Assembly: GCA_919902675.1 (NCBI GenBank)
Contig: CAKKRH010000030.1
Coordinates: forward strand, 1 to 41,880
Length of the DNA stretch: 41,880 nucleotides
DNA from: Omnitrophica bacterium GWA2_41_15
Lineage (GTDB): Bacteria > Omnitrophota > Gorgyraeia > Gygaellales > UBA12090
Direction: 5' to 3'
The notes below the pieces were generated by a model. That model was not told the origin of the DNA. It did no database searches and was given only the letters and a program-made list of their open reading frames with translations. The translations under genes and the position numbers were made by a program. Of this stretch, positions 1 through 41,880 are shown one piece after another; within the stretch, counting starts at the first letter, position 1; the number at the start of each line of letters is the position of its first letter.

Positions 1-1167
1 GAAAGCCGCATTGTTACGCGCACCAAGGAATTGGAATTCGCCAATAAAGGATTAGTTGAGGCCAACTTTATGGCCACGACTCTCTTAGAGGCAATTCCCT
101 TTGTTATGGATATTGTGGATGAGCAAGGAACGGTTTTGCGGGTTAGCCCTAAATTAGAGGCGATAACCGGCAAGGGGGTTTTGGGCGGGAAGTGCTGGGA
201 GTTTTACCGGGATAATAAAAGGCAGTGCCTGGATTGCCCCTTAAGAAAGGAAATAAGAATAGGCCAGACTGCCTTTATGGAAACCAGCGGAGTATTCGGG
301 GGCAGGATATTCAGCGTCAGCCATACCGGAATGATTTATCAGGGGAAGAAGGCGGTCTTGGAAATCTTCCAGGATATTACCGAAAGAAAGCAGTCTGAGG
401 AAGAACTGATAAAGGCCCACGAGGAGCTTAAGTCTGCCCAGGCGCAATTAGTTCAATCAGCCAAGATGGCCTCGGTAGGCCAGCTGGCCGGAGGGGTGGC
501 CCATGAGATCAATAACCCCTTGACCGGGGTATTAAATAATGTCCAGCTGATCAAAATGGAGCTGGCGGATAAAGTTGATTTTAAAATAGATGATTTTAAG
601 GAGCTTTTGGATATTATTGAAGAATCGGCTCAGCGCTGTGCCAAGATAACCCGTTCCCTGTTGGAGTTTTCCCGCTCTCCCAAGGAAACTCTGGCTCCGG
701 TCTCTTTGAATGAGGCAGTGGAAAAGGTGGCGGCCTTAATCAGCCATGAGTTAAAATTGCAGAATATCATAATTGAAAAACAGCTTGAGCCGGATTTACC
801 CCCGGCTTCGGGAAATTTTCAGCTTCTTCAGCAGTGTATTTTTGACATCATCACCAATGCCCGCTGGGCTATCCGCAAAAAATCCGAAAACGCCGGCGGG
901 GTAATCACCATTAAGACTCATTATGACGACCATCTGGGAAAAACGGTGAATATCTCGATTTCGGATACCGGCGTAGGCATTGCCCAGGAAAACTTAGGCA
1001 AGATTTTTGAGCCGTTTTTTACCACTAAACCGGTTGGCGAGGGCACCGGCCTGGGATTATCCATTGTCTATAACATCATCAAGGAGCACAACGGAATAGT
1101 TACCGTGGAAAGCGAGCCCGGCCAGGGAGCGGTATTTAAAATCTCCCTGCCGGCGATAATTATATAG
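1..1167 (+). CDS. PAS-domain sensor histidine kinase (NtrB-like HisKA/HATPase), 5'-truncated by the window edge
   Basis: Frame is open from base 1 (ESRIVTRTKELEFAN...). PAS ends in DITERK; H-box AHEINNPL; G boxes DTGVGI, FEPFFTTK, GTGLGL. Confidence 0.92.
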   Translation, partial: ESRIVTRTKELEFANKGLVEANFMATTLLEAIPFVMDIVDEQGTVLRVSPKLEAITGKGVLGGKCWEFYRDNKRQCLDCPLRKEIRIGQTAFMETSGVFGGRIFSVSHTGMIYQGKKAVLEIFQDITERKQSEEELIKAHEELKSAQAQLVQSAKMASVGQLAGGVAHEINNPLTGVLNNVQLIKMELADKVDFKIDDFKELLDIIEESAQRCAKITRSLLEFSRSPKETLAPVSLNEAVEKVAALISHELKLQNIIIEKQLEPDLPPASGNFQLLQQCIFDIITNARWAIRKKSENAGGVITIKTHYDDHLGKTVNISISDTGVGIAQENLGKIFEPFFTTKPVGEGTGLGLSIVYNIIKEHNGIVTVESEPGQGAVFKISLPAIII

Positions 1168-1302
1168 CCTTGCATAAATATCGCTACATATGAACTTATA
1201 ATCCTGTGTCATTGCGAGGAGCGACAGCGACGAAGCAATCTTACTTTTAAGATTGCTTCGCTTCGCTCGCAATGACACTTTAATTATGCAAAGGTATATA
1301 AT
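1159..1302. mobile_element. MITE-like nested palindromic element (RPE/REP-like)
   Basis: Outer IR ATTATATAGCCTTGCATAA (1159-1177) / TTATGCAAAGGTATATAAT (1284-1302), 17/19. Inner perfect 13-bp stems GTGTCATTGCGAG (1206-1218)/(1266-1278) and CGAAGCAATCTTA (1231-1243)/(1248-1260). Confidence 0.65.
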
Positions 1303-1396
1303 AACCAATAACCAATTTTCAATAATCAAAATATTTGGGTATTGGTATTTGGGTATTGGAATTTATTTGGTTATTGCATCTTGGTGGTTGGTTATT
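1300..1396. repeat. Heptamer-based imperfect palindrome (AATAACC / GGTATTG units)
   Basis: AATAACCAATAACCAA (1300-1315) vs TTGGTGGTTGGTTATT (1381-1396), 14/16 inverted match; repeated GTATTGG units in the right arm. Confidence 0.75.
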
Positions 1397-1417
1397 AAAT
1401 AAGAAGGAAAGAATACG

Positions 1418-3220
1418 ATGACTAAAAAAGCTGTTTCAGGCGGACTAAATACCAGGGTTTATTATTTATTTATTTTTATAACTTTTATCTTTTTCCTCTT
1501 GACCGGAGTTGTGGTTTTTGCCCGGACCAAGGCTATAATCAAGAATTTTATTTTTAATGAGCTGGGCTATTTTATTCAGAATGTTGACGCCAGGATTGAC
1601 CTTTTTATTGAGGCCAAAAAAGGCCGGGCCCTGGATTTTTGTTCCGACGGCATCATTAAAGACGGGCTTACCTATTACGATCCCGACGATAAAGACGTGG
1701 ATAAACTCCGTCAGCAGATTGATGATCATTTGGCTAAAAACAAGGTGGTGCTGGATGCCCAGCTTGAGGACACCCTTATCCTTAACCTTAAGGGAAAGGT
1801 TATTTTTTCCAATAATGAGCGGAATATTGGAAAGGATAAATCGCGAGAAGAATATTTCAGGCAGATCAGTCGTTATTTTAAAGATCAGGCGGTTTTAAAG
1901 AAACTCCGCCGCAATCCTACTTCTACAGTTTATGCCGGTGATGTCTATGTTTCTGAAGACCTGAATGCCCCGGCTTTGGCGGTTTCCAATATTATTACTG
2001 CCCGGGCTACCGGACTTCCTCTGGGGGTCCTGGTTAACCGCTACCGGCTGGATGTCCTGATAAAATCCATAGAGATACGCGAGGCCGCGATGGGAAATAC
2101 AGGCAAGTTTTACCTGATTAATAAAGACGGGCTTTTGCTTAACATACCAAAATTTTTTCCCTCCGGGAAAAAAGAAGATATAATTTTAAAAGAAAGGATA
2201 GATATTCCGGTGGCGATCACCATCTTGGAGGATTCGGTTAAAATGTTAGGCGTATACCGGGATTTCCGCGCCGAGCCGGTTCTGGGAGCGGCAATGTTGA
2301 TGAAAAGAAATAACTGGTTGATTATCGCGGAAAAAGATACCCGGGAGGCATTCGCCCCTCTTTACAGCTTAACCTGGCAGATGATTTTTATCGGCTTGGC
2401 CGCTTTAGTGGTGATTGTCGGGGTATTCTTATTTATTATCCGCCTGCATAAAAAAGTAGATGAAAAAAACCGGGAATTAGAGGATTCCCGCAATAAGATG
2501 TTTCAAAGCGGAAAGCTGGCCGCGGTGGGGCAATTGGCCAGCAGTGTGGCCCATGAGATTAACAATCCGCTTACCGGTGTTTTAAACAATGTCCAGTTGA
2601 TTAAGATGGAGATGGAGATGGGGGCGGATTTTAAGGTTACGGATTTCAAAGAGCAGTTGGATGTGATTGAGGAGTCGGCCTCCCGGTGCGTGAAAATAGC
2701 CCGCTCTTTATTGGATTTCTCCCGTGCCGCCAAGGGGACATTCCAGCCTTTTTCCCTGAATGAGGCGGTAGAGAAGACCATAACCTTAATCGGCCACGAA
2801 CTAAAATTGCGTGATGTCTCGGTAAAAAAAGAGCTGGGGGAAAATCTTCCCCGGATTCAAGGCGATACCCAGCTCATCCAGCAGGTCATCTTTGATATTG
2901 TTAATAACGCCAGATACGCCATAGAAAAAAACCCCAAAAAAGAAGCCGGGCTGATAATCTTAAAAACCCGCTATGATATGGTTAAGGATCTGGTTTTGCT
3001 TTCCATCTCTGACAACGGCACGGGAATCTCTCCGGAAAATCTGGATAAACTTTTCACCCCGTTTTTTACCACTAAGCCGGTTGGTGAGGGTACCGGATTG
3101 GGCCTGTCTTTTATCCAGGACATTGTGAAGAGGCATAACGGTAAAGTTTCAGTGGAAAGCGAATTAGGCAAAGGAACGACTTTTCATATTTCTTTTCCGG
3201 TGATAAAGGAGAATAAATGA
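1418..3220 (+). CDS. Membrane sensor histidine kinase (TM - Cache-like periplasmic domain - TM - HisKA - HATPase)
   Basis: Two hydrophobic segments; Cache-like motifs (IGKDKSREEYF, YRDFRAEPVLGA, WLIIAEKD); AHEINNPL; DNGTGI, FTPFFTTK, GTGLGL. Confidence 0.92.
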   Translation: MTKKAVSGGLNTRVYYLFIFITFIFFLLTGVVVFARTKAIIKNFIFNELGYFIQNVDARIDLFIEAKKGRALDFCSDGIIKDGLTYYDPDDKDVDKLRQQIDDHLAKNKVVLDAQLEDTLILNLKGKVIFSNNERNIGKDKSREEYFRQISRYFKDQAVLKKLRRNPTSTVYAGDVYVSEDLNAPALAVSNIITARATGLPLGVLVNRYRLDVLIKSIEIREAAMGNTGKFYLINKDGLLLNIPKFFPSGKKEDIILKERIDIPVAITILEDSVKMLGVYRDFRAEPVLGAAMLMKRNNWLIIAEKDTREAFAPLYSLTWQMIFIGLAALVVIVGVFLFIIRLHKKVDEKNRELEDSRNKMFQSGKLAAVGQLASSVAHEINNPLTGVLNNVQLIKMEMEMGADFKVTDFKEQLDVIEESASRCVKIARSLLDFSRAAKGTFQPFSLNEAVEKTITLIGHELKLRDVSVKKELGENLPRIQGDTQLIQQVIFDIVNNARYAIEKNPKKEAGLIILKTRYDMVKDLVLLSISDNGTGISPENLDKLFTPFFTTKPVGEGTGLGLSFIQDIVKRHNGKVSVESELGKGTTFHISFPVIKENK

Positions 3221-3957
3221 CAGAAAAGACTAAATTGAAAGTGTTGGTAGTTGACGATGAAAAGGTGATTCGGGACTTCTTGAGCCGTTTTTTAAGCCTG
3301 CAATTGGCCCAGGTGAAGACCGCCGCCGACGGAGAAACGGCCATAGAGCTGGCCAAAACCGAGGAATTTGATTTGGTGTTTTTGGATATCCGGATGCCCA
3401 AGACCAACGGCCTGGAAACATTCGGGGAACTGAAGAAGATAACTCCGGATATAGCCTGCGTGTTTATGACCGGGTATGCCTCAGCCGAAGAGGATTTGAT
3501 TAACAAGATTAAATATGAAGGGATTATGTGCGTGCGCAAGCCCTTTGAGAATTTAAATAAGATAAAAGAGATAGTGGAGAATGTGCTTAAGGAGGCCAGC
3601 CTTGTGCCGGATAAAAAAGAGAGTGATCCTAAGGAGAAAAGGGCCTATCGGCGCTTTGATATGGTTTTAGAAGTAGACTACCGGATAAAAGGTAAGACAG
3701 GCGCTTTTAGCCATTGCCTAAGCAATAATATTTCCCTGGGAGGAATAAGGCTTTTAGCGCCTGATGAGTTTTCTCTGGGGACAAAATTGGATTTGGTTAT
3801 CAAGAGCCCGGACAATAAAAATACCTGCGCGGTTCCCGGCGAGGTGGTCTGGGTGAGAAAATCCGAGAGCAAGGCCGGCCATTACGAGGCGGGAATAAAA
3901 TTCAGCGAAATAAATATTAATCAGTTGTCCGGGCTGATGATGTCAATAACTGAATAA
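3217..3957 (+). CDS. Response regulator receiver fused to a PilZ domain
   Basis: VLVVDDE, FLDIRMP, MTGY, RKPF; C-terminal KRAYRR (RxxxR) and NISLGG (D/NxSxxG), GEVVWVR, AGIKF. ATGA-type overlap with the upstream kinase. Confidence 0.88.
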   Translation: MTEKTKLKVLVVDDEKVIRDFLSRFLSLQLAQVKTAADGETAIELAKTEEFDLVFLDIRMPKTNGLETFGELKKITPDIACVFMTGYASAEEDLINKIKYEGIMCVRKPFENLNKIKEIVENVLKEASLVPDKKESDPKEKRAYRRFDMVLEVDYRIKGKTGAFSHCLSNNISLGGIRLLAPDEFSLGTKLDLVIKSPDNKNTCAVPGEVVWVRKSESKAGHYEAGIKFSEININQLSGLMMSITE

Positions 3958-4087
3958 ACACTAAATTCTAAACTCTAAATCCTAAACAAACCCAAAAGCT
4001 AAAATCCTAAATCCAAAACACATGTTTTGAGTTTTGTATTTATAGTTTTGAGTTTGTTTAGAGTTTAGAATTTCGGGTTTAGAGTTT
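3955..4087. repeat. Family A palindromic heptamer element, copy 1 (133 bp)
   Basis: AAACACT AAATTCT AAACTCT AAATCCT AAACAAACCCAAA ... AAAACA-CA-TGTTTT ... TTTGAGTTTGTTTAG AGTTT AGAATTT CGGGTTT AGAGTTT. Starts at the TAA stop codon. Confidence 0.92.
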
Positions 4088-4115
4088 GTATTAGGGTTTC
4101 ATATGGAGACGCGAT

Positions 4116-4859: not shown

Positions 4860-6393
4860 CAGCCTTAAAGAGGAAAACCAGCGCCTGCGCGACGAGCTCA
4901 ACGACCGGATTTTTGAGCTGTCCATACTTTATGATATCTCTAACAGCATCAGCTATACCTTAAATTATGAGGATTTTATGAAGATTATGGCTGATTCCCT
5001 GAATAGGATTATTGATTACGACCTCTGCAGTTCCTTGCTTATACTCGACGGAGAAAAGGCCAGGATGATAATCCGCGCGGCCCATCCCGTAAAGAGGGAT
5101 ATCTTTGAGGAAGTTAAGAATAATGTGATCGCTTCTTTAAATTCGCTTCGGCCAAGAGCTATTTCCGGTGAGGAGATTGAGTTTGAGGTCAGGGGAGAGA
5201 TTCTGGATGATAAGAGAAGCGAAGGCGAACGGATAGTTTCTTCTTTTGACGTGCCTTTGTTTGTGCGTCAGGAGGCGGTGGGGATATTAAATGTGGCCGC
5301 GGTCAGGGACATCGCCTATTCGGATGAGGAGATAAAACTGCTTTATACCCTGGCCTCCCAGGCCTCCGCGGCTATTGAAAGGTTGCAGGCGGTATTATCC
5401 GCGGAAAAGAGCAAGATGAAGGTGATGGTGGAGAGGATGTCTGAGGGGGTGGCGATGTTTGACGAAAAAGATGAGCTGGTGATTGTCAATTCCGCCTTTA
5501 ATGAGATGACCGGAGGCGACTTAAGCCTGTTGGGTGAGCTGGATGAGATAAAGAAGCGCCGCAAACAGCCGAAGGTTCTGGATATTCATTTGGAAAAACC
5601 GTTTCCGCGGGTAATTAACAGCGAATCAGCCTGTATTGAGGACGATAATGGCCGGTATCTGGGGATAGTAATGCTCTTGAGGGATGTAAGCAAGGAGCGG
5701 GAGATTGAACAGATGAAGTCGGATTTTGTTTCGCTGGTTTCCCACGAACTGCGCACGCCCCTGGTAGCCATAAAGGGAGCGGCGGATAATCTCTTAGACG
5801 GCCTGGCGGGTGAGTTAAACGATATTCAGAAGGATTGTCTGGTTCTTTCCAAACGTAACATTGACCGCTTAAACCGGTTGATTTCCGACCTTTTGGATAT
5901 ATCCCGGATTGAAGCCGGAAAGATTCAACTTAACAAACAGCCGGCGGATGCCGCTTCTATAGTTAAGGACGTGTTGGGTTTATTTCAGGCAAGCGCGAAA
6001 GAGAAAAACATCGCTTTGGAGTCATTACTGCCTGAGGAGCTTCCCTTAGTTACGATTGATTCGGATAAGATTAATCAGGTGCTTACCAATTTAGTGGGTA
6101 ATGCCTTGAAGTTTACTCCCGCCCAGGGTAAAATAATGATCAAGGTTTTTCGCGCGGAGAACTTCTTGCGGGTAGAGGTGAGGGATACCGGAGTAGGTAT
6201 CCCTAAGCAGGATCTGGAGAAGGTTTTTGACAAATTTTATCAGGTGGACCGCAATAAGAGTTTTACCTCGGTTAAAGGTACCGGCTTGGGGCTTCCTATA
6301 TCTAAAGGCATTGTGGAAAGGCACGGAGGCAAAATCTGGGCCGAGAGCGAGGCGGGAGAGGGAAGTAAATTCATTTTCACCCTTCCTGTTTAA
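4846..6393 (+). CDS. Cytoplasmic GAF-PAS sensor histidine kinase
   Basis: GAF motifs (VPLFVRQEAVGIL, LLYTLASQASAAIE), PAS (MSEGVAMFD...LLRDVS), H-box SHELRTPL, NLVGNALKFT, DTGVGI, GTGLGL. Confidence 0.92.
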   Translation: MTEVDSLKEENQRLRDELNDRIFELSILYDISNSISYTLNYEDFMKIMADSLNRIIDYDLCSSLLILDGEKARMIIRAAHPVKRDIFEEVKNNVIASLNSLRPRAISGEEIEFEVRGEILDDKRSEGERIVSSFDVPLFVRQEAVGILNVAAVRDIAYSDEEIKLLYTLASQASAAIERLQAVLSAEKSKMKVMVERMSEGVAMFDEKDELVIVNSAFNEMTGGDLSLLGELDEIKKRRKQPKVLDIHLEKPFPRVINSESACIEDDNGRYLGIVMLLRDVSKEREIEQMKSDFVSLVSHELRTPLVAIKGAADNLLDGLAGELNDIQKDCLVLSKRNIDRLNRLISDLLDISRIEAGKIQLNKQPADAASIVKDVLGLFQASAKEKNIALESLLPEELPLVTIDSDKINQVLTNLVGNALKFTPAQGKIMIKVFRAENFLRVEVRDTGVGIPKQDLEKVFDKFYQVDRNKSFTSVKGTGLGLPISKGIVERHGGKIWAESEAGEGSKFIFTLPV

Positions 6394-6487
6394 ACTCTAA
6401 ACTCTAAACCCGAAACTCTAAACAAACTCAAATATTTAAACCTAAAATCCAAAACAAAATAAACATAGAATTTTGTGTTTTGGGTTT
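6391..6487. repeat. Family A element, copy 2 (full left arm, truncated right arm)
   Basis: T AAACTCT AAACTCT AAACCCG AAACTCT AAACAAACTCAAA ... AAAACA-N19-TGTTTTGGGTTT. Starts at the TAA stop codon. Confidence 0.85.
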
Positions 6488-6511
6488 ACTTTTAATTTTA
6501 TAGGTGCTGCT

Positions 6512-8152: not shown

Positions 8153-8164
8153 TTTAAAACTCCC

Positions 8165-8346
8165 TAAACCCTAAATCCAAAATCCTAAACTCTAAACAAA
8201 CTCAAAATGATAAATTCAAAACTCAAATATAATGTTTTGGGTTTGGAAAATTTTTATTTTGGATTTGTTTAGGATTTATGGTTTAGTGTTTAGAGCTTAT
8301 CTTTTATGTTCAGTATTTAAAGTTTTAAATTCAAATTATGAAGAAA
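8165..8346. repeat. Family A element, copy 3, plus 3' tail; direct repeat of 8731-8913
   Basis: Palindromic heptamer element 8165-8299 followed by TCTTTTATGTTCAGTATTT...AAATTATGAAGAAA, shared with the next copy. Confidence 0.92.
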
Positions 8347-8730: not shown

Positions 8731-8913
8731 TAAACCCGAAACCCGAAACCCGAAACTCTAAACAAACTCAAAATGATAAACTCAAAACTCAAAATAAAAT
8801 GTTTTAGGTTTGGAAAATTTTTATTTTGGATTTGTTTAGGATTTATGGTTTAGTGTTTAGAGTTTATCTTTTATGTTCAGTATTTAGAGTTTTAAATTTA
8901 AATTATGAAGAAA
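8731..8913. repeat. Family A element, copy 4, plus 3' tail; direct repeat of 8165-8346
   Basis: T AAACCCG AAACCCG AAACCCG AAACTCT AAACAAACTCAAAATGATAAA ... AAATTATGAAGAAA. About 12 differences from copy 3 over about 182 bp. Confidence 0.92.
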
Positions 8914-9482: not shown

Positions 9483-9519
9483 TAGTTGACGGTTGACAGA
9501 TGACAGTTCACAGAAAAAA
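9483..9519 (+). repeat. Family B heptamer array (RGTTSAC)
   Basis: T AGTTGAC GGTTGAC AGATGAC AGTTCAC AGAAAAAA. Confidence 0.8.
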
Positions 9520-10591: not shown

Positions 10592-10622
10592 TAGTTCACG
10601 GTTCACAGTTAACAGTTCATAG
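10592..10622 (+). repeat. Family B heptamer array
   Basis: T AGTTCAC GGTTCAC AGTTAAC AGTTCAT AG, preceded by the same GGATAGTT (stop codon context) as the 9483 copy. Confidence 0.8.
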
Positions 10623-10634
10623 TAATTAAGAACT

Positions 10635-12665: not shown

Positions 12666-12714
12666 AAAAATGAATAATAAATATCGAATATCGAATAAAA
12701 TTTTAAAAAAAAAC

Positions 12715-13252: not shown

Positions 13253-13402
13253 ATGCGTGAAACTATAACCTTGGAATGCTCGGTTTGTAAAAACCGTAAT
13301 TATACTACCACCAGAAATAAGAAGATACATCAGGATAAGCTTCTTTTGAGCAAACACTGCAGATTTTGCCGTAAACATACAGAACATAAAGAAATAAAGT
13401 AG
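13253..13402 (+). CDS. rpmG: 50S ribosomal protein L33 (Zn-ribbon type); not in the ORF track
   Basis: Manual translation [49 protein letters not shown]. Confidence 0.97.
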
Positions 13403-13405
13403 TTC

Positions 13406-13429
13406 TAGTTCACAGTTGGCAGTTCACAG
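13406..13429 (+). repeat. Family B heptamer array
   Basis: T AGTTCAC AGTTGGC AGTTCAC AG. Confidence 0.75.
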
Positions 13430-14314: not shown

Positions 14315-14453
14315 TAAATCCTAAATCCGAAACCATAAACCCTAAACAAACCCAAATGTCAAAACTTAAAACCCAAAACAAAAAATAAGAAATAAACCTT
14401 TGTGTTTTGAGTTTATAGTTTCGGATTTGTTTAGAATTTAGGGTTTAGGGTTT
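14315..14453. repeat. Family A element, copy 5
   Basis: T AAATCCT AAATCCG AAACCAT AAACCCT AAACAAACCCAAA ... AAAACA-N22-TGTTTT ... TTCGGATTTGTTTAG AATTT AGGGTTT AGGGTTT. Confidence 0.9.
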
Positions 14454-14464
14454 GAATTATTAAA

Positions 14465-15574: not shown

Positions 15575-16104
15575 AATTAGGCAGTTTTTTTCGTAACTCG
15601 GCTGTTAACAGATTAAAGAAGGATATCGGTGAATCCGACAGCCTTTTTGTGGTTCAATATTCAGGGCTGGACAGCTTTAGGATGAGCCAGCTTAGAATCG
15701 CGCTCAGGGATGGGAAATCCAGGCTCTTTGTCTCTAAGAACAGCCTGATGAAGATAGCCCTTAAGGATTCTAAGATTGATGGCTTAGAAGGATTTTTTGA
15801 GGGGCCGGCGGCCCTGGTCTTTAGCGATAATGATATTGCCGTTGTTTCAAAAATCCTTTCTAAATTTGCCAAAGAGAACGAGAAATTGATTTTGAAGGGG
15901 GCTTATTATAAGGGAAGCTTATTTAAGCAGAAAGATATTGAAAATATAGCCAAGCTTCCCTCTAAAGAGGTATTGATAGCCCAGGTGGTATACGCCCTGA
16001 AGTCGCCGTTGGCAGGTTTGGTTTTTACCCTTGGGGGCGTTTTAAATAAATTAGTGATCGTGCTTAATCAGATAAAAGAGCAAAAAACAATCAAGGGTCA
16101 ATAG
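15571..16104 (+). CDS. rplJ: 50S ribosomal protein L10
   Basis: YSGL, VSKNSL, FEGPAAL, IAKLPSKEVL. ATG 15571 overlaps the rplA stop (ATGA). Confidence 0.93.
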   Translation: MKLGSFFRNSAVNRLKKDIGESDSLFVVQYSGLDSFRMSQLRIALRDGKSRLFVSKNSLMKIALKDSKIDGLEGFFEGPAALVFSDNDIAVVSKILSKFAKENEKLILKGAYYKGSLFKQKDIENIAKLPSKEVLIAQVVYALKSPLAGLVFTLGGVLNKLVIVLNQIKEQKTIKGQ

Positions 16105-16125
16105 TTGATGGTTGATAGTTTATAG
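16102..16125 (+). repeat. Family B-like heptamer array starting at the rplJ stop
   Basis: TAGTTGA TGGTTGA TAGTTTA TAG. Confidence 0.65.
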
Positions 16126-16164: not shown

Positions 16165-16545
16165 ATGGCTGTTAAAGATGATGTAATCAAGTCAATTGAA
16201 GGAATGAATGTGCTGGAGCTTGCTGATTTAGTCAAAGAGCTCCAGGATAAATTTGGGGTTTCAGGCCAGATGGCGCAAGCGGCTGTTGGCGCGCCCGGCG
16301 GCACAGCGGCCCCTGCCGCGGCTGTTGAAGAAAAGAGCGCTTTTTCCGTGGTGCTCACCTCATCCGGAGCGAATAAAATCTCGGTTATTAAAGAAGTGCG
16401 CACTATCACTAACCTGGGACTTAAAGAGGCCAAGGATTTAGTTGACGGTGCCCCTAAAACAGTTAAGGACGGACTCCCCAAGGCGGAAGCCGAAGAAATG
16501 AAGAAAAAGCTTGAGGCCGCTGGAGCGACGGTAGAGTTAAAATAG
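16165..16545 (+). CDS. rplL: 50S ribosomal protein L7/L12
   Basis: [34 protein letters not shown]; AAGGAGG SD. Confidence 0.99.
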
Positions 16546-16581
16546 TTTGTAGAGTTTGTTGAGTTATAGAGTTTGTTGAGT
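16543..16581 (+). repeat. Family C 9-mer array (left arm only)
   Basis: T AGTTTGTAG AGTTTGTTG AGTTATAG AGTTTGTTG AGT; reverse complement of the AACTCAACA unit. Confidence 0.75.
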
Positions 16582-20035: not shown

Positions 20036-20054
20036 TTAACCAGCAACCAATAAT

Positions 20055-20153
20055 CGCTGAACTACGCGGAGCAGTACGCAGAACTACGCACAACTTGTAT
20101 TGCGTGGTTCCGCGCAGAGTTCAGCGTTGTTCCGCGCCCGAGCGGAGCGAGGG
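20055..20153. repeat. Family D (CGCRGAACTA-type) imperfect palindrome plus CCCGAGCGGAGCGAGGG motif
   Basis: CGCTGAACT (20055-20063)/AGTTCAGCG (20118-20126); GAACTACGCA (20081-20090)/TGCGTGGTTC (20101-20110). Confidence 0.75.
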
Positions 20154-24206: not shown

Positions 24207-24239
24207 TAGCGAGTATCGAATAACGAAGAAGGATAGAAA

Positions 24240-29005: not shown

Positions 29006-29077
29006 ACGCGGAACTTTCGCGGAACTACGCATAACCTATATTACGTTATTGCGCGTAAAGTTCTGCATAGTTGAGCG
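29006..29077. repeat. Family D imperfect palindrome
   Basis: CGCGGAACTTT CGCGGAACTA CGCATAAC ... GTTATTGCG CGTAAAGTTCTGC ATAGTTGAGCG. Confidence 0.7.
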
Positions 29078-29085: not shown

Positions 29086-29784
29086 ATGTCTAATTATATT
29101 ATTGGTAAAAAAATAGGGATGACTCAGATTTACGATGAGTCGGGAAAGTTGACTCCGGTTACGGTAATTGAGGCCGGGCCATGTCCGATTCTTGCGGTTA
29201 AGGATAGGAATATTCAGATAGGTTTTGACGCGGTTAAAGAAAAAGCTTTAACTAAGCCTGTCCTAGGTATCTATAAAAAAGCCGGAGTAAGCCCGCGCAG
29301 GATGTTGAAAGAAGTCCCTAAGGTTTCCGGTCAAGAGTATGCGGTGGGAGGAGAGCTTAAGGTAGACATTTTTACTTTTGGCGAGAAAGTGGATGTTATT
29401 GGTGTTTCCATTGGTAAGGGTTTTCAGGGTGGGATGAAGCGCTGGCATTGGCAGGGCGGGCCTAAGACCCATGGTTCAACCAGTCATCGCCGGGTAGGCT
29501 CAATCGGTTCTAGCACCACTCCGGGAAGGGTCTTTAAGGGGCATCATATGCCGGGGCATATGGGAAATGAAAAGGTTACTGTCTTTGGCCTTAAGGTGGT
29601 AAAGGTAGACAGCGTGAATAATCTTTTGGCCTTAAAGGGCGCTGTGCCGGGGCCTAAAAATAATTATCTGGTTATCCGTAAGACTACTAAACATAAACGT
29701 CAGGTAATTAAGCCTATAATTGCCGAACAGAAGGCTGAGGCGGGAAAGAAAGACGCCAAGAAGCAGGCAGCGGCTAAGAAATAA
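29086..29784 (+). CDS. rplC: 50S ribosomal protein L3
   Basis: GKKIGMTQ, PVTVIEAGP, GKGFQG, HGSTSHRRVGSIG, KGAVPGP. Start at ATG 29086. Confidence 0.98.
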   Translation: MSNYIIGKKIGMTQIYDESGKLTPVTVIEAGPCPILAVKDRNIQIGFDAVKEKALTKPVLGIYKKAGVSPRRMLKEVPKVSGQEYAVGGELKVDIFTFGEKVDVIGVSIGKGFQGGMKRWHWQGGPKTHGSTSHRRVGSIGSSTTPGRVFKGHHMPGHMGNEKVTVFGLKVVKVDSVNNLLALKGAVPGPKNNYLVIRKTTKHKRQVIKPIIAEQKAEAGKKDAKKQAAAKK

Positions 29785-29880
29785 ATCAAATATCAAATAT
29801 TAAAATCTAAAATACAGACAAAAATTAAAATAAAATATCAAAATGCAAAAATCAAAAAGACAATCTAAAGACAAAAAAGA
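29782..29880 (+). repeat. Family E A-rich heptamer array (AAAWATC) overlapping the rplD start
   Basis: AAATATC AAATATT AAAATCT AAAATAC AGAC AAAAATT ... AAATATC AAAATGC AAAAATC AAAAAGAC. Confidence 0.65.
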
Positions 29881-30798: not shown

Positions 30799-30837
30799 AG
30801 TTTAGTTGAATAAGATATTAAGCGAGAACCAAAAATC

Positions 30838-30986
30838 AAACACTAAATCCTAAACCATAAACTCTAAACAAACTCAAAATGTCGAAAACACAAAACACAA
30901 AAACAGAAAAAAGTAATATAAATATTTCGCGTTTTGAGTTTATGATTTTGAGTTTGTTTAGGGTTTAGAATTTAGAGTTTGAGTTT
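30838..30986. repeat. Family A element, copy 6
   Basis: AAACACT AAATCCT AAACCAT AAACTCT AAACAAACTCAAA ... AAAACA-N24-CGTTTT ... TTTGAGTTTGTTTAG GGTTT AGAATTT AGAGTTT. Confidence 0.9.
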
Positions 30987-31850: not shown

Positions 31851-31886
31851 GCTAGCGCGTAGTAAACAGTAAAAAACATATTTCTC

Positions 31887-31914
31887 TTAACTGTTCACTG
31901 TGAACCGTTAACTA
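31887..31914 (-). repeat. Family B heptamer array, inverted
   Basis: Reverse complement reads T AGTTAAC GGTTCAC AGTGAAC AGTTAA. Confidence 0.75.
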
Positions 31915-31936
31915 TCTGAAGCGAAGCGAGGATGTA

Positions 31937-32561: not shown

Positions 32562-32573
32562 GATAATGGGCTT

Positions 32574-32706
32574 AAACTCTAAACCCGAAATCCTAAACTC
32601 TAAACAAACTCAAAACCATAAACACAAAACTCAAAACATGTGTTTTGGATTTAGGATTTTAGCTTTTGGGTTTGTTTAGGATTTAGAGTTTAGGATTTAG
32701 GGTTTA
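32574..32706. repeat. Family A element, copy 7 (133 bp; inverted copy of 3955-4087)
   Basis: Matches the reverse complement of 3955-4087 at 128/133 positions with no gaps (manual alignment). Confidence 0.93.
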
Positions 32707-32755
32707 ATTAACAGAGTTTGCTTTAAATAATGTAGTTTACGGTAAGTGAGGGCAC

Positions 32756-33466: not shown

Positions 33467-33863
33467 GAGAGTAAAGTTCCGCAAGACTCAAAGAGGCGCC
33501 CGGGATGGCGTATCTACCCGGGGGTCAGAACTTAATTTCGGCGAGTATGGTTTAAAGGCCTTGGAGAACGGCTGGTTAAAAAATAATCAGCTTGAAGCTA
33601 TTCGCGTAGTTCTGGCCAGGAGGCTGCATGGCGGAGGTAAGATGTGGTTGAGGGTTTTTCCGCATAAATCCGTTACCAAGAAACCGGCGGAAACCCGCCA
33701 GGGAAAAGGCAAAGGCGATCTCGATCATTGGGTGGCGGTAGTTAAAAGAGGCAGAATCCTGGTTGAGTTAGGCGGGGTGCCTGAGGCTATTGCCCATGAA
33801 GCCTTCAGGATGTGCGCCTATAAATTGCCGTTTTCGGTAAAGCTTGTTAAGAGAGCGCATTGA
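33450..33863 (+). CDS. rplP: 50S ribosomal protein L16
   Basis: LMPKRVKFRK, FGEYGLKALE, TKKPAETRQGKGKG. Confidence 0.99.
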   Translation: MPLMPKRVKFRKTQRGARDGVSTRGSELNFGEYGLKALENGWLKNNQLEAIRVVLARRLHGGGKMWLRVFPHKSVTKKPAETRQGKGKGDLDHWVAVVKRGRILVELGGVPEAIAHEAFRMCAYKLPFSVKLVKRAH

Positions 33864-33890
33864 AAGTAAAAAGTTAAAAGGTAAAAGAAA

Positions 33891-35862: not shown

Positions 35863-35942
35863 TTGAGTTCATTGAGTTTGTCGAGTGCATTGAGTTTATT
35901 GAGTTGAATCAAAATAACCCGATAAACTCAAGTAACTCAATA
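35863..35942. repeat. Family C 9-mer palindrome
   Basis: TTGAGTTCA TTGAGTTTG TCGAGTGCA TTGAGTTTA TTGAGTT GAATCAAAAT AACCCGATA AACTCAAGT AACTCAATA. Confidence 0.85.
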
Positions 35943-35953
35943 GACAGGAGTAT

Positions 35954-36355
35954 ATGGCAAGCACAGATCCAATAGCAGATATGTTGACCGTGATTCGCAA
36001 CGCGGTAATGGCGCGTAAAGATTCTACGATAACCACGGCATCTAAGATAAACAGGGCTGTTTTAGAGATATTAAAGGCCGAGGGATATATTGAAAATTTT
36101 AAAGAGCAGGCGGCACTGAGCGCGGCTAAAACAATCAAAGTGTATTTAAAGTATAACTCTGATAAGAAACCGCTTGTGAAAGGTTTAAAGAGGGTTTCTC
36201 GCCCGGGTTTAAGGGTTTACGCTAATGCCGCCAAAATACCTTTTGTGCTAAGAGGGTTTGGCCGGGCGATAATTTCCACATCCCGCGGTTTAATGATTGA
36301 TAAAGAGGCCAGAAAGCAAAAATTAGGCGGAGAAGTCATTTGTTATGTATGGTAA
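35954..36355 (+). CDS. rpsH: 30S ribosomal protein S8
   Basis: DPIADML, RVSRPGLRVY, ISTSRG, GGEVICYVW. Confidence 0.99.
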   Translation: MASTDPIADMLTVIRNAVMARKDSTITTASKINRAVLEILKAEGYIENFKEQAALSAAKTIKVYLKYNSDKKPLVKGLKRVSRPGLRVYANAAKIPFVLRGFGRAIISTSRGLMIDKEARKQKLGGEVICYVW

Positions 36356-36360
36356 TTAGT

Positions 36361-36470
36361 TGTTTGAGTTAATTGAGTCTATTGCGTTATCGAGTTAAAT
36401 TCAAGAATAACTCAACAAACTCAACAAACTCAACAAACTCAACAAACTCAACAAACTCAACAAACTCAAA
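36361..36470. repeat. Family C 9-mer palindrome with expanded right arm, (AACTCAACA)x6 + partial
   Basis: Left arm TTGAGTTAA TTGAGTCTA TTGCGTTA TCGAGTTA; perfect tandem 36409-36462 plus AACTCAA to 36469. Confidence 0.92.
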
Positions 36471-36472
36471 TT

Positions 36473-37012: not shown

Positions 37013-37014
37013 TT

Positions 37015-37043
37015 CAAATATCAAAAATAAAATATCAAAATGC
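37015..37043 (+). repeat. Family E A-rich heptamer array overlapping the rplR start
   Basis: C AAATATC AAAAATA AAATATC AAAATGC; 37024-37043 identical to 29827-29846. Confidence 0.65.
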
Positions 37044-37402: not shown

Positions 37403-37404
37403 GC

Positions 37405-37917: not shown

Positions 37918-37922
37918 TTAAA

Positions 37923-38369
37923 ATGGCTTTAAACGCATTGATATCAGTAAAAGGCGCTAAAAAAAGAAAAAAGCTGGTAGGCCGCGGCCCGGGTTCAGGG
38001 CACGGAAAAACTTCAACTCGTGGCCATAAAGGGCAAAGGTCCCGCTCGGGAAGGGATTTTTATCTTGGATTTGAGGGGGGGCAATCCCCCCTGATTCGCA
38101 GGATTCCCAAAAGGGGTTTCAATCATCGTAAAAGAAATAACTATCAGATAGTAAATATCAACAGCTTAAATAGATTTTCCAAAGATTCGATTGTAGACGC
38201 GGCCTCACTACTCAAGAGTGGCTTAATAGAAGATGCCATGGGTTTGGTAAAGATCCTGGGAGATGGTGATTTAGCTCATCCTTTGACGGTCAAGGCCCAT
38301 AAGTTTTCTAAGGCTGCCGGCGAAAGAATAGAAAAGGCCGGAGGAAAAATAACAGTTATAGAGTTATAG
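37923..38369 (+). CDS. rplO: 50S ribosomal protein L15
   Basis: [27 protein letters not shown]. Confidence 0.99.
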
Positions 38370-38466
38370 AGTTAAATCCAAAAAAACAAACTCAACAAAC
38401 TCAACAAACTCAACAAACTCAACAAACTCAACAAACTCAATAAACTCAATAAACTCAATAACTCTA
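38354..38466. repeat. Family C element with expanded right arm, (AACTCAACA)x5 (AACTCAATA)x3
   Basis: Left arm AGTTATAG AGTTATAG AGTTAAATCC overlaps the last rplO codons; tandem array 38389-38460. Confidence 0.92.
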
Positions 38467-38467
38467 A

Positions 38468-39808
38468 ATGCTGGGCGCTTTTAAGAATATATTTAAGATT
38501 CAGGATTTAAAGCACAAGGTTATAATTACCTTGGCCTTAATAGCGGTTTACCGCGTAGGCGGCTTTATTCCTGTTCCCGGAATTGATTCTCAGGCCTTAG
38601 CCGAGTTCTTTGACAGAATTGCCAAAAGCCAGGGTGGGTCAATCTTAGGGATCATGAATATGTTTTCCGGAGGTTCTCTGGAAAAATTGACTATCTTTGC
38701 CCTGGGGATAATGCCTTATATCTCTAGTTCAATAATAATCCAGCTCTTAACCGCGGTTATTCCGGCTTTGGAAAAAATTTCTAAAGAAGGAAGAGCCGGC
38801 CACCAAAAGATAAATCAGTATACCCGTTATGCCACGGTGGGCCTGGCCCTAATTCAGTCATATTTTATCGCCTTATGGCTGGAGCATCCGGGGAGACTTT
38901 TAGAGGGTTTAAGTATTGTGACTGACCCGGGATTAGGTTTTAGATTCATTACCGTGATTACCCTGACCACCGGTACTATTTTTATTATGTGGTTAGGTGA
39001 GCAGGTCCAGGAAAGAGGTATCGGAAACGGCATTTCTTTGATTATTACCGCTGGGATTATTTCGAGTATCCCGGCCGCTGTTCAGCAGCTAATTATGTAT
39101 GTTTCACCTAAAACTCGCCAGCTTCATCCGGCGACTCTGGTGGTTATGGCGGCCTTGCTGGTATTCGTAGTTTTGGCGGTTATCTTTGTTACTCAGGGCC
39201 AGCGCAAGATACCGGTGCAATACGCCAGACGGGTGGTGGGAAGAAAGGTCTTTGGCGGACAATCAACCTACATACCTCTAAAGGTGGATACCTCAGGGGT
39301 AATCGCGATTATCTTTGCCCAATCTATCATTATGTTTCCGGCAACTCTGGCCTCTTTTATTCCCAATCCGGCATTCCAGAGAATGTCTAATTTCCTTATG
39401 CGCGGGCATATAGTCTATACCGCAATGTACGCTCTTTTGATAATTTTCTTTTGCTATTTTTACACGGCTATTGTTTTTAATCCCAAAGACATTTCGGATA
39501 ACTTGAAAAAATACGGCGGTTTTATCCCCGGGATCAGGCCGGGTTCTCCCACTACGGAGTTTCTGGATTTTGTGATGACCAGGATTACTTTGGCCGGCGC
39601 GATATTTATCGCGGTTATTGCTATTTTGCCGGATTTCGTAATGGCCACCCTGAAAGTTCCTTATTTAGTCGCTTCATTCTTCGGCGGAACAGGAATTCTT
39701 ATTGTTGTCGGAGTAATGCTGGACACCCTTAAACAGATCGAATCTCAGCTTTTGATGCGTAACTACGAAGGTTTTATTAAGAGCGGCCGTATCCATGGTA
39801 GACGTTAG
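38468..39808 (+). CDS. secY: Preprotein translocase SecY
   Basis: IFALGIMPYISSSIIIQL, WLGEQ...GIGNGISL, GFIPGIRPG, GGTGILIVVGV; multiple TMs. Confidence 0.99.
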   Translation: MLGAFKNIFKIQDLKHKVIITLALIAVYRVGGFIPVPGIDSQALAEFFDRIAKSQGGSILGIMNMFSGGSLEKLTIFALGIMPYISSSIIIQLLTAVIPALEKISKEGRAGHQKINQYTRYATVGLALIQSYFIALWLEHPGRLLEGLSIVTDPGLGFRFITVITLTTGTIFIMWLGEQVQERGIGNGISLIITAGIISSIPAAVQQLIMYVSPKTRQLHPATLVVMAALLVFVVLAVIFVTQGQRKIPVQYARRVVGRKVFGGQSTYIPLKVDTSGVIAIIFAQSIIMFPATLASFIPNPAFQRMSNFLMRGHIVYTAMYALLIIFFCYFYTAIVFNPKDISDNLKKYGGFIPGIRPGSPTTEFLDFVMTRITLAGAIFIAVIAILPDFVMATLKVPYLVASFFGGTGILIVVGVMLDTLKQIESQLLMRNYEGFIKSGRIHGRR

Positions 39809-39940
39809 TGCGCTGTTACATAAAATTTTTAATAACAGCGCACAGAGCAATTGAGCAATAGAAAATAGAACAATAGACAAACAAAAGCTCAATTGCGGTC
39901 TAATGCTCTATTGTTCAAAAACTAATTTAACGGTGCGCTA
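39806..39940. mobile_element. MITE-like element with TA-bounded terminal IRs and internal 8-mer palindrome
   Basis: TAGTGCGCTGTTA (39806-39818) / TAACGGTGCGCTA (39928-39940); internal perfect stem 39808-39818/39833-39843; RGARCAAT octamers and their inverse; second copy at 41826. Confidence 0.7.
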
Positions 39941-39942
39941 TA

Positions 39943-40593: not shown

Positions 40594-40620
40594 GGGCCTG
40601 ATAAAAAGCTGTAGGCAATA

Positions 40621-40657
40621 TTTTTTCCGTGAACTGTCAACTGCCAACTGTGAACTA
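40621..40657 (-). repeat. Family B heptamer array, inverted, abutting the map start
   Basis: Reverse complement T AGTTCAC AGTTGGC AGTTGAC AGTTCAC GGAAAAAA; same layout as 9483-9519. Confidence 0.82.
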
Positions 40658-40659
40658 AA

Positions 40660-41406: not shown

Positions 41407-41421
41407 TCCGTAAAACGTAAA

Positions 41422-41640
41422 ATGGCCAAAGAAGAAGCGATTGAGGTTGAGGGGGTAGTAAAAGAATCTTTACCGAATGCGATGTTTAGAGTGGAATTGG
41501 AGAATGGCCATGTTGTCTTGGCCCATGTCTCAGGTAAGATGCGGATGCACTTTATCCGGATCCTTCCCGGTGATAAGGTAAAAATGGAATTATCGCCATA
41601 CGATTTAACCAAAGGCAGAATAACTTTTAGGGTAAAATGA
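41422..41640 (+). CDS. infA: Translation initiation factor IF-1
   Basis: [31 protein letters not shown]. Confidence 0.99.
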
Positions 41641-41712
41641 ACCCCGCTCTTCCTTCAGGATTTTCCATGCTGAATAAAGAGAAGGGTTATAATAGAAAAG
41701 GAAGGGCGGGGT
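41641..41712 (+). promoter_or_regulatory. 15-bp RNA stem spanning the infA-rpmJ spacer and covering the rpmJ initiation site
   Basis: ACCCCGCTCTTCCTT (41641-41655) pairs with AAGGAAGGGCGGGGT (41698-41712): 14 Watson-Crick pairs + 1 U.G. Confidence 0.6.
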
Positions 41713-41824
41713 GAAAGTAAAATCTTCAGTAAAAAGAATTTGCGACCGCTGTAAAATAATTAAGCGCTGCGGAGTAGTAAGGGTTATCTGCACTAATCCT
41801 AAACATAAACAGAGACAAGGATAG
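41711..41824 (+). CDS. rpmJ: 50S ribosomal protein L36 (GTG start); not in the ORF track
   Basis: Manual translation [37 protein letters not shown]. Confidence 0.97.
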
Positions 41825-41825
41825 C

Positions 41826-41880
41826 TTAGTGCGCTGTTACATAAAATTTTTAATAACAGCGCGAGAGAGCAATTGAGCAA
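41826..41880. mobile_element. Second copy of the secY-adk MITE-like element, cut by the window edge
   Basis: First 37 nt identical to 39805-39841, then AGAGCAATTGAGCAA also shared. Confidence 0.75.

Follow-up and report, generated by a model that had tools for sequence, protein, structure and literature searches.

The stretch analysed here, called the window, is a complete contig of 41,880 bases (C30) from an uncultured groundwater Omnitrophota metagenome-assembled genome (MAG) of 1.74 Mb in 58 contigs, rated 80% complete (the source genome, G000). All the window genes used lie on the + strand. They comprise sensor kinases and response regulators, a type II secretion or pseudopilin cluster and the long operon run secE-nusG-rplKAJL-rpoBC-rpsLG-fusA-tuf-S10-spc-secY-adk-map-infA. 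The present study deals with what lies between these genes, namely arrays of short tandem units, many of which are followed by an inverted arm and thus form palindromes. The first eighteen window genes, adk and map were named with Pfam; rpoB, rpoC, fusA, tuf and the ribosomal genes from rpsL onward were identified by order, length and recognition and not by a family search. The counterparts of L4, L23, L2, S19, L22 and S3 were found by tblastn in relatives, in the same order.

Arrays in the spacers of the window

Tandem Repeats Finder (TRF) returned 76 rows in the window. According to a hand-made gene list there are 32 gaps of at least 20 nucleotides (nt), and 21 of these carry a TRF array (period 6-11, score at least 30). 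Six further gaps, at 24207, 24642, 29006, 31851, 37013 and 41827, hold unit arrays or palindromes of known families recognised by eye or by family search. This makes about 27 array-bearing gaps, where a preliminary description of this DNA had counted about 25. The families that it had named were found again at the same places (Table 1): seven copies of family A, the AATAACC palindrome, two members of family D, family C at 35866, 36353-36469 and 38385-38458, and two members of an 8-mer family. The orientation of single arms with respect to gene direction is mixed within the window, as judged by eye.

Genome-wide, TRF returned 1,362 rows as against 305-321 in three dinucleotide-preserving shuffles. 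The excess over such shuffles is large at period 7, where 417 arrays stand against 40, 34 and 40, and for those scoring at least 40 the figures are 208 against 0, 0 and 0. Inverted repeats with ungapped arms of at least 22 nt number 124, compared with 3 in one shuffle; the arms are periodic in 66 of the 124 (0 shuffled), with a period of 7 in 51 of the 66. On a crude longest-ORF (open reading frame) map 260 of the 417 period-7 arrays fall outside the ORF calls. Merging of the arrays gave 649 loci (26 kb), of which 388 (18.6 kb) are not within ORF interiors on the same map. It was found that array length is quantised. Among 316 non-overlapping period-7 arrays, with a median length of 31 nt, 157 carry 4.0-4.9 copies of the unit, as against 72 with 3 and 25 with 5, which bears out the earlier remark that the units often come in fours. 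The TRF score floor trims the low side of this distribution; the drop from four to five units is real. Clustering of all loci gave one large A-like cluster (131 loci) followed by clusters of 33, 29, 22, 14, 13, 8, 7 and 7, and at least eight families are present in 1.7 Mb. The preliminary observation is confirmed and is stronger than first put.

Dispersed copies and turnover of spacers

An nhmmer profile of family A detected 51 sites in the source genome, 40 of them at least 110 nt long, the full length being about 136 nt. The corresponding counts were 27 for family D (86 nt), 24 for the 8-mer family, 22 for family C (77 nt), 14 for the AATAACC palindrome and 11 for a GC-rich 71-nt hairpin. 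A search seeded with the family B palindrome gave no genome match beyond the seed itself, and family B was tallied from TRF units (AACTGTC, 12 arrays; AACTGTG, 12 arrays). The 40 family A copies share one colinear layout of about 136 nt, which extends to non-repetitive differences specific to one arm. Two copies in the window, 3955-4087 and 32572-32707, are 96% identical, lie 28 kb apart and are inverted with respect to each other. This pair shows that whole elements, together with their arm-specific differences, are copied to distant places.

The 8-mer family is a composite, in which a GC hairpin is followed by an 8-mer palindrome and the whole is bounded by 13-nt imperfect terminal inverted repeats. 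The ends read GTGCGCTGTTACA ... TGTAACAATGTAC in 16 aligned copies, and most of these have TA on both sides, which may be the element's own. Many 8-mer copies are near-identical, with sharp and common boundaries, and at least six contig ends, the window end included, fall inside such copies. In families A, C and D the palindrome takes up the entire element, and terminal inverted repeats are thus not discriminating for them. In an Rfam search (E up to 0.1) no element reached the gathering threshold, and two tRNAs alone passed. The family A copies at 3956-4087 and 32574-32705 gave 46.7 and 45.7 bits with the plant microRNA precursor model MIR9563 (threshold 90), which we take to be a chance effect of palindromes built of AAACCCT-type, plant-telomere-like units. 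The upstream regions of two adjoining pseudopilin genes, 8153-8337 and 8728-8904, are near-identical by eye up to the start codon, and their likeness extends past the family A element itself, which suggests local duplication or conversion.

Comparison with two congeners, G001 and G002, whose L2 proteins are 96% and 95% identical to that of the source genome (81% in the nearest Omnitrophica/Omnitrophota public MAGs), revealed how quickly the spacers change. One G001 contig is syntenic with positions 14778-41829, and the alignment falls into 13 blocks whose identity is 88.8-97.0%. All 12 alignment breaks lie at spacers or gene ends, and the fillers are never alignable. Tandem-unit elements were found among these fillers at 8 of 12 sites in the source genome and 6 of 12 in G001 (by eye), usually from different families. 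Some spacers are filled in the source genome and nearly empty in G001, such as rpsH-rplF (112 vs 4 nt), adk-map (82 vs 8) and fusA-tuf (80 vs about 0), and the reverse was seen at rplE-rpsN (8 vs 78 nt). The flanks of these four sites are well conserved. Orthologous spacers thus vary in the presence and absence of elements. At rplO-secY an 8-mer family element in G001 corresponds to a 9-mer array in the source genome, and rplW-rplB holds three different palindromes in the three congeners. At rplB-rpsS a family B palindrome is common to the source genome and G002, and G001 has another filler. At rpsS-rplV the source genome and G001 have 4 nt, and G002 (contig C111) alone holds 130 nt of AT-rich filler, which carries a terminal inverted repeat.

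The spacers named in the preliminary description as normally very short are indeed short in more distant relatives. The rplW-rplB spacer measures 218 nt in the source genome and 106 and 76 nt in the congeners (stop codon counted), as against about 2-41 nt in ten order-level genomes. For rplV-rpsC the length is 194 nt in the source genome and about 2-20 nt in 10 of 11 order-level genomes; the exception, with 94 nt, also has arrays. Copy numbers vary in the same manner. Counted as BLAST matches on both strands, family A has 79 matches in the source genome, 9 in G001 and 11 in G002, none in G003 and G006, which belong to the same taxonomic family, and two other families of the order give 16 and 30. 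For family D there are 22, 0 and 8 matches in the source genome, G001 and G002 respectively, and for the 8-mer family 24, 17 and 2. The proposal that dispersed elements of an insertion type have entered operon spacers and left the genes unbroken is therefore upheld by the 14-51 colinear copies per family, the inverted 96% pair and the filled and near-empty sites. None of the conditions that the preliminary description had set for its own refutation was borne out: spacers vary in the presence of elements, arrays far exceed those in shuffles, and Rfam gave no match to a curated family. The tandem grammar itself (about four heptamers, a spacer or GC hairpin, inverted heptamers) was also seen in unrelated phyla at or near ribosomal-protein operons, in MAGs of one Anaerolineales, three Oscillospiraceae or Clostridia and other Omnitrophota.

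Wrong joining of repeats into the contig during assembly or binning was considered as another explanation. The window contig does end in a repeat copy, and contigs from public sequencing runs break inside repeats. Four such runs, one of them an RNA library, were compared, all as contigs. Runs X1-X6, from aquifer samples, contain 90-94% of the sampled sequence words. Across the window junctions the run contigs, which come from several studies, show 0-16 differences; contigs of independent runs bridge 30799-31016 and 35859-35953, and like filler is seen in the congeners and in named public MAGs. An artefact is thus scarcely credible. Single RNA-library contigs span whole elements and both flanking genes at 30524-31307 and 34798-36355, which fits co-transcription and cannot show it. 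Such a library may contain DNA. Run contigs stop inside or beside the perfect 9-mer arrays 36409-36469 and 38385-38458, so the copy numbers of these two arrays may be unreliable. Joints in the run contigs at 31849-31920 and 35856-35954 match G001-type fillers, and we attribute them to a relative that occurs alongside, rather than to polymorphism within the strain. Other joints between element copies (e.g. 30922-32617) are cross-matches of repeat copies. Presence/absence variation within the population was not found in the run contigs.

Table 1. Tandem-unit elements of the window, with in-gene arrays and RAYT-like genes located elsewhere (C, contig; positions without a contig are those of the window)
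Feature	Position	Strand	Remarks
GC-rich hairpin, 71 nt, GTGTCATTGCGAG... family	1205..1275	.	adjoins AATAACC palindrome
AATAACC/GGTTATT heptamer palindrome	1298..1395	.	TRF and family search
Family A, AAAYYCT units, ~136 nt	3953..4088	-	array includes stop codon of upstream gene
Family A, partial, one arm	6391..6489	+	begins on stop codon 6391-6393
Family A	8164..8300	.	upstream of pseudopilin gene
Family A	8731..8867	.	profile search
Family B, single arm, AGTTGAC x4.3	9484..9513	+	TRF
Family B, single arm, AGTTCAC x4.4	10593..10623	+	TRF
Short array, AATATCG x2.6	12680..12697	+	TRF
Family B-like single arm (AGTTCTA/AGTTCAC/AGTTGGC)	13401..13429	+	after small unlisted gene; by eye, hand-counted
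Family A, nusG-rplK spacer	14315..14454	.	TRF and profile
ATAGTTG x3.6, rplJ-rplL spacer	16101..16125	+	TRF
AGTTTGTAG 9-mer x4.3, rplL-rpoB spacer	16544..16581	+	TRF
Family D palindrome, CGCRGAACTA units, 86 nt, rpoB-rpoC spacer	20052..20137	.	followed by CCGAGCGGAGCGAGGG ribosome-binding stretch
AATAWCG-type remnant	24207..24239	+	below TRF threshold; best 4-unit self-match 0.71 at period 7
Family C-type short palindrome, TTGAGTT...AACTCAA	24642..24713	.	below TRF threshold; by eye
Short family D-type palindrome, rpsJ-rplC spacer	29006..29070	.	by eye
Family E, AAATCAA-type A-rich array x11, rplC-rplD spacer	29783..29858	+	TRF
Family A with extra A-rich loop material, rplW-rplB spacer	30836..30986	.	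bridged by run contigs
Family B palindrome, left arm decayed, rplB-rpsS spacer	31851..31924	.	by eye
Family A, rplV-rpsC spacer, reference copy	32572..32707	+	profile and alignment
AAAGTTA x3.6, rplP-rpmC spacer	33863..33887	+	TRF
Family C palindrome, TTGAGTTYA x4 then AACTCAAYA, rpsN-rpsH spacer	35866..35942	.	44 unrelated nt in G001
Family C, TAATTGAGT x5 then AACTCAACA x6.8, rpsH-rplF spacer	36353..36469	.	4 nt in G001
Family E remnant, AAATATC units	37013..37039	+	below TRF threshold; self-match 0.79 at period 7
AGTTATAG x2.6 over rplO stop codon, then AACAAACTC x8.2, before secY	38354..38458	+	TRF
8-mer element, GC hairpin GCGCTGTTA...TAACAGCGC and 8-mer palindrome	39806..39942	+	ends GTGCGCTGTTACA...TGTAAC-type
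Family B, single arm, AACTGTC x3.6, adk-map spacer	40632..40656	+	spacer 8 nt in G001
8-mer element, start, cut by contig end	41827..41880	+	family search
In-gene array, valS	G000 C7:8621-8721		
In-gene array, pyrK-like	G000 C12:38090-38237		
In-gene arrays, lnt-like	G000 C6:36209-37756		four arrays
In-gene arrays	G000 C1:151811-160278		
RAYT-like gene	G000 C12:51674-52339		
RAYT-like gene	G000 C1:136045-136719		
RAYT-like gene	G000 C20:42424-43128		
RAYT-like gene	G000 C31:2334-3281		
RAYT-like gene	G000 C49:10570-11247		
RAYT-like gene	G000 C49:3294-3986		
RAYT-like gene	G001 C32:137559-137942		

Placement, folding and arrays inside genes

Gaps of at least 50 nt with an array locus of at least 50 nt number 98 among the 615 co-directional ones, 1 among the 37 convergent and 1 among the 50 divergent. 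Upstream stop codons are overlapped by 24% of 305 arrays, and 35% begin within 5 nt of the stop; in the window this can be seen at 3955, 6391, 36353 and 38354. The stretch GARCGRAGYGAGG has nine matches in the source genome, eight of which end 3-4 nt before a start codon, and in at least five of the nine (by eye) it follows a family D element, as at 20139-20152 in the window. Similar stretches of the type CCGAACGRAGTGAGGG close many fillers in G001 and in family-level relatives.

Such placement could be expected of functional hairpins maintained in cis by selection, whether as RNase III or other processing sites, 3'-end stabilisers by which the relative amounts of operon segments are set, translation insulators or arrays bound by an RNA- or DNA-binding protein with a 7-nt footprint. 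The elements lie almost solely between co-directional genes, a ribosome-binding stretch is left or supplied, as by GARCGRAGYGAGG in eight of nine cases, RNA-library contigs (which may contain DNA) bridge two elements and their flanking genes, the predicted folds of family A are stable (-40 to -57 kcal/mol), and a regulatory role has been proposed in print for TAACTGA repeats (PMC4679880). On the other hand 91% of adjacent ORF pairs are co-directional anyway, both orientations of the elements occur, like arrays are found inside coding loops, and within the genus the orthologous spacers are conserved neither in sequence nor in family nor in presence. When 120 array loci of at least 50 nt were folded on both strands there was no sense-strand bias; of 94 co-directional structured loci, 42 folded at lower energy on the sense strand and 52 on the antisense, and the antisense if anything folds better (p=0.046). 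Covariation between arms was absent from the two largest families. In family A the within-copy score was 26.4 as against 29.1 between copies (within higher in 10 of 40), in family D the within-copy score was higher in 9 of 23, and in both families left arms are closer to other left arms than to their own right arm. Promoter-like sites in 24000-41880 numbered 25 against 33.4 expected, and terminator-like sites 27 against 19.9, which we read as no excess. None of the + strand terminator-like sites in this interval is a tandem-unit palindrome, the sole terminator-like hairpin on that strand being the GC hairpin after tuf, 28607-28620, which is followed by a T-rich tail. Selected hairpins are thus an improbable explanation, and the suggestion in the preliminary description of protein-bound DNA or mRNA hairpins found no support. 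Ordinary GC-rich hairpins without tandem units are also present in operon spacers, at 27299-27340, 28607-28620, 34085-34112 and 41641-41712.

The elements had been described as intergenic. This is correct for the filled spacers and too narrow for families whose units contain no stop codon in the strand that is read, as these also occur in frame inside genes; family A units carry TAA. In the GTCCACA/GCTATCC cluster 29 of 33 loci lie in frame within ORFs, where they read STVHSPQ, WTVDCGL or YPLSAIR, and in the CAGCTGA cluster 12 of 29 do so, reading SAISCQLSA or KAESRKLKA. ValRS has two in-frame palindromes, an Lnt-like protein has four in-frame arrays and PyrK has three, in loops that are variable among orthologues. 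The ValRS insert of 24 residues is coded by a GTCCACA/TATGGAC palindrome. A YPLSAIR-type peptide occurs in the same loops of order-level genomes.

A coding stretch of 9.4 kb (C1:151000-160413), 90% identical to its counterpart on contig C29 of G001, carries five GTCCACA-type arrays. Five coding sites were compared between these two genomes. At one of them, in a gene that we take from its motifs, and not from a family search, to be purD, the loop has no array in G001, four GTCCACA units in the source genome and three in G002. Another site carries the same array in the source genome and G001. At three of the five sites both genomes have four-unit heptamer arrays over the identical interval and made of different units, for example AGTCCAC x4 vs CAGAAAC-type x4 and AAAAGGC x4. 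GTCCACA occupies four of the five sites in the source genome; at these G001 has a different unit in three cases and no array in the fourth, and its arrays differ from one another. Within one array, units may be linked by single-base paths (CTATCGA, CTGTCGA, CTGTGGA). The same interval filled with different units points to overwriting, conversion or very fast turnover in place, in addition to plain insertion, and is not easily explained by independent insertion.

It could be possible, then, that no transposition is involved and that the arrays are made where they stand, at tolerant sites, by slippage biased to 7-nt units and by template switching at hairpins, which would yield the inverted arms, with ectopic gene conversion spreading a dominant unit. 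The families would then be the outcome of concerted evolution. The rewritten intervals at three of five sites, the array that differs solely in unit number (4 vs 3), the single-base paths and the recurrence of one unit at four of five sites of the source genome, with mutually different arrays in G001, would all be accounted for. The commonness of heptamers in bacteria and the slippage proposed for them (Mrazek 2007, cited in PMC4679880 and PMC4692102) speak for it as well. Against it stand the 40 family A copies that are colinear over ~136 nt with arm-specific differences, the inverted 96% pair, and the 8-mer family, in which the GC hairpin is not repetitive, the ends are defined and the copies near-identical. 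The arms of the two largest families keep separate identities without homogenisation, the sharp mode at four units is unlike free slippage, and spacers of 4-8 nt in one congener correspond to elements of 80-110 nt in the other. Manufacture in place is unlikely, and it is the alternative to which we give most weight.

A separate micro-repeat was met in the course of these comparisons, a 20-22-nt GC palindrome of the CCTGCCTGCCGGCAGGCAGG type, with 5 copies in the source genome, 62 in G001 and 59 in the genome G007 (0 for the reversed control pattern). Clean insertions of 20, 28 and 42 nt are present in G001 and absent in the source genome (C1:151229, 152110 and 152142), two of them inside a heptamer palindrome, and a palindrome of this type is also found in the source genome at C6:101579-101678.

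Candidate enzymes, origin and known systems

Six genes of the source genome score above the cut-off of the Pfam Y1_Tnp model (PF01797). For all six the best NCBIfam model is NF047646, which describes RAYT proteins (transposases associated with repetitive extragenic palindromic sequences, REP), and two exceed its cut-off (89.5 and 82.7 bits vs 80). The motifs H-hydrophobic-H and YIERNP are visible by eye in the translations. Each RAYT-like gene is flanked by its own inverted motif of ~20 nt. Four of the six, as well as a G001 homologue, have a tandem array of 2-3 short units that lies 1 to 45 nt after the stop codon, and this 3' stutter begins in or just after the flank motif (by eye). The protein encoded on C31 has a DnaA C-terminal-like stretch (E 2.6e-9). 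RAYT-model hits number 9 in the source genome, 15 in G001 and 14 in G006, as against 0-5 in 28 other genomes searched, and the density of period-7 arrays is modestly correlated with RAYT hits (Spearman 0.49, n=24, in an unbiased sample of the first 20 kb of two contigs per genome). A higher coefficient (0.82, n=12) was set aside, as its loci had been chosen for their arrays in the source genome and were biased. Searches of the source genome with PF01609, PF00665, PF01548 and PF07282 gave no match; PF01359 gave none either, nor in 14 control genomes, so this blank is uninformative. DDE_3 (PF13358) matched one open frame of 94 residues at C13:32299-32433, the C-terminal part of an IS630-type transposase and a remnant of 47 positions. 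A RAYT-like fragment lies near this remnant, and none of the searched words of the 8-mer ends is found near it. Beside the DDE_3 remnant, the RAYT-like Y1 genes are the sole candidate enzymes among the seven transposase families sought, and they are weak candidates.

The spacer breaks, the copy-number differences, the absence of covariation and of sense bias and the in-frame copies together argue for mobile or fast-turnover DNA. We consider, with a probability of roughly 0.62, that the window carries several families of small non-autonomous selfish elements of 60-150 nt, whose one or two arms are built of about four tandem units of 7-10 nt, two arms making an imperfect palindrome. Whole elements are copied to new places in either orientation, as the family A copies show, and their distribution suggests that they survive where they are harmless. 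Families whose units contain stops (A, TAA) would persist only in spacers between co-directional genes, usually near or on the upstream stop codon with the downstream ribosome-binding site intact, and families with stop-free units on the reading strand would persist in frame in variable protein loops. After insertion an element decays neutrally, and slippage alters its unit number, as the missing covariation in families A and D and the 4-vs-3 difference show. Whole families expand and vanish on the time scale of species within a genus, as is shown by the copy numbers in the congeners. RAYT-like HUH Y1 transposases could possibly act on the single-stranded hairpin form, and the 8-mer family may instead be a MITE, or miniature inverted-repeat transposable element, of the terminal-inverted-repeat type. 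The hairpin in the mRNA would probably be a by-product and not a conserved function.

Several observations weigh against this selfish-element reading. Where filled and near-empty sites can be compared cleanly, the element stands in place of 4-8 nt and is not a simple addition, and the three coding intervals with different four-unit arrays have been discussed above. A target-site duplication or conserved target was not established for families A, C and D; neither the family A pair of 96% identity (by eye) nor the filled/near-empty sites showed a duplication. A slight within-copy excess of arm complementarity was obtained for family C (13/16), the 8-mer family (14/18) and AATAACC (9/13), with a split point chosen to favour pairing. 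Families A, C and D flank none of the six RAYT-like genes, whose own flank motifs occur 1-10 times each and have no tie to these families; with no major family flanking a RAYT gene, the defining link of a REP-RAYT system is missing. The trans-acting factor that the preliminary description had invoked is thus not secured by the presence of these genes. In G007 one RAYT hit goes with 59 copies of the 20-nt GC palindrome, which uncouples the two counts, and the correlation given above is weak, with counts of 0-4 per genome and related genomes that are non-independent. The missing transposase proves little, as the MAG is 80% complete and insertion sequences often remain unassembled, and the genome-wide gene map is a crude one.

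A further proposal, somewhat less likely than manufacture in place and best regarded as speculative, is that the sites are stable and their content is rewritten. A four-unit cassette (~31 nt) would be overwritten repeatedly by whichever family is active, the agent being the expanded RAYT-like HUH enzymes. This has as its basis the sweep of GTCCACA over four of five sites in the source genome, together with the stutter in the 3' flanks of the RAYT-like genes, which starts within the flanking hairpin motif, and it would cover spacers and protein loops alike. If true, RAYT-like enzymes would be generators of tandem heptamers at the feet of hairpins, and the old question of the abundance of heptamer arrays in certain bacteria would have an answer in terms of mechanism.

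The evidence shifts the balance for such repeats from regulatory site towards selfish, fast-turnover DNA. It shows that highly expressed ribosomal operons tolerate hairpins of 100-200 nt between genes that normally almost touch, and in-frame copies reach essential genes such as valS and pyrK. This Omnitrophota genus offers a dense and comparable case, with three congeneric genomes whose genes are 89-97% identical and whose fillers differ. In practice the repeats break short-read assemblies of such genomes and add lineage-specific peptides to conserved proteins, which is relevant to annotation and to alignment-based phylogeny. Outside the spacers discussed so far, the 910-nt gap at 12666-13575 holds two tRNA genes (13108-13180 and 13464-13534) and between them a small unlisted gene that is rpmG (L33)-like by eye.

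Bacterial arrays of tandem heptamers are on record from the short tandemly repeated repetitive (STRR) sequences of cyanobacteria onward, Calothrix among them. The STRR units presumably differ from the units found here. Elhai, in 2008, is said to have described very small dispersed repeats (SDR) nested in the heptamer arrays of Nostoc; the CCTGCCTGCCGGCAGGCAGG palindrome, inserted into heptamer arrays and hairpin loops in G001 and not at those positions in the source genome, would be alike. MITEs of the IS630/Tc1 type have terminal inverted repeats and a TA duplication. The 8-mer family alone resembles them, through its 13-nt imperfect terminal inverted repeats and the TA on both sides of most of 16 copies; it differs in that a full-length parent element with 8-mer ends was not found, the DDE_3 remnant being without those ends.

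Literature searches directed at Omnitrophota and repeats gave no description of such elements for the phylum. The preliminary description had not recognised the families as named elements. The Rfam result agrees with this for the families themselves; their kind has been described already, in Geobacter (PMC2700814) and Beggiatoaceae (PMC4679880). REP sequences are GC-rich hairpins of 20-40 nt, often tagged with GTAG/CGTC, and RAYTs are said to be single-copy as a rule (PMC3116915, PMC3733652, PMC3337134). The elements of the source genome are like REPs and REPINs in being small, non-autonomous intergenic palindromes whose populations differ between relatives, in a genome with RAYT-like genes that have their own inverted motif. 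They are unlike them in that the arms of families A, C, D and AATAACC are arrays of 30-65 nt made of AT-rich 7-10-nt units, and the 6-9 RAYT hits per 1.7 Mb depart from the single-copy rule as it is given in the passages on RAYTs. The Rickettsia palindromic elements (RPE) comprise several families and have in-frame insertion as their hallmark; they enter housekeeping genes that are unrelated to one another, and also the spaces between genes (PMC10969869). They are about 150 bp long, specific to Rickettsia, encode a conserved peptide and are not described as tandem heptamers in the relevant parts of that paper (PMC10969869). Their likeness to the present elements lies in the way of working, as in-frame palindromes in genes, and not in membership.

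Heptamer elements are also found in Geobacter metallireducens, where a four-heptamer element has 49 copies, both intergenic and inside genes, and a further class consists of five-heptamer palindromes, drawn as looping; the sister species lacks these elements (PMC2700814). These have GC-rich units, belong to another phylum and were read as regulatory RNA or IHF/HU sites, and the passages devoted to them report no comparison of filled and empty sites, unlike the present case (PMC2700814). In marine Beggiatoaceae, TAACTGA arrays of 2-6 units stand just upstream of start codons, also inside ribosomal-protein operons, e.g. before fusA, rplC and rpsD; their phylogenetic spread is patchy, mobile-element insertion at internal operon sites has been discussed, and binding of S1, cold-shock or CsrA-type proteins has been proposed (PMC4679880). 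There it is a single unit in direct repeats, with one inverted among 170 sets in the account given, whereas the source genome has many families, mostly with an arm and an inverted arm. Position is the sole basis of the roles proposed there for heptamer arrays (PMC4679880, PMC2700814).

Among the long simple repeats of many bacteria, heptamers are reported to be the most frequent, and polymerase slippage has been proposed as their cause (Mrazek 2007, cited in PMC4679880 and PMC4692102), and their arrays are still called uncharacterised (PMC4692102). The GGGAATC arrays of Xanthomonas and GGGGAYT arrays of Nostoc lie between genes, differ from one close species to another and in some cases occur as inverted pairs (PMC4692102). 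Similar heptamer elements are thus already in print for Geobacter, Beggiatoaceae, Xanthomonas and cyanobacteria; the kind is known and unexplained. The arrays of the source genome share with these long simple sequence repeats (LSSR) and STRRs the dominant heptamer period, the mostly intergenic position, the differences between close relatives and the lack of a known function. As far as those accounts extend, the source genome differs from them in having many unit families in one small genome, about four units per array, palindromic elements with 14-51 colinear copies, spacers that are filled in one congener and nearly empty in another, and copies that are read in frame within coding sequence.

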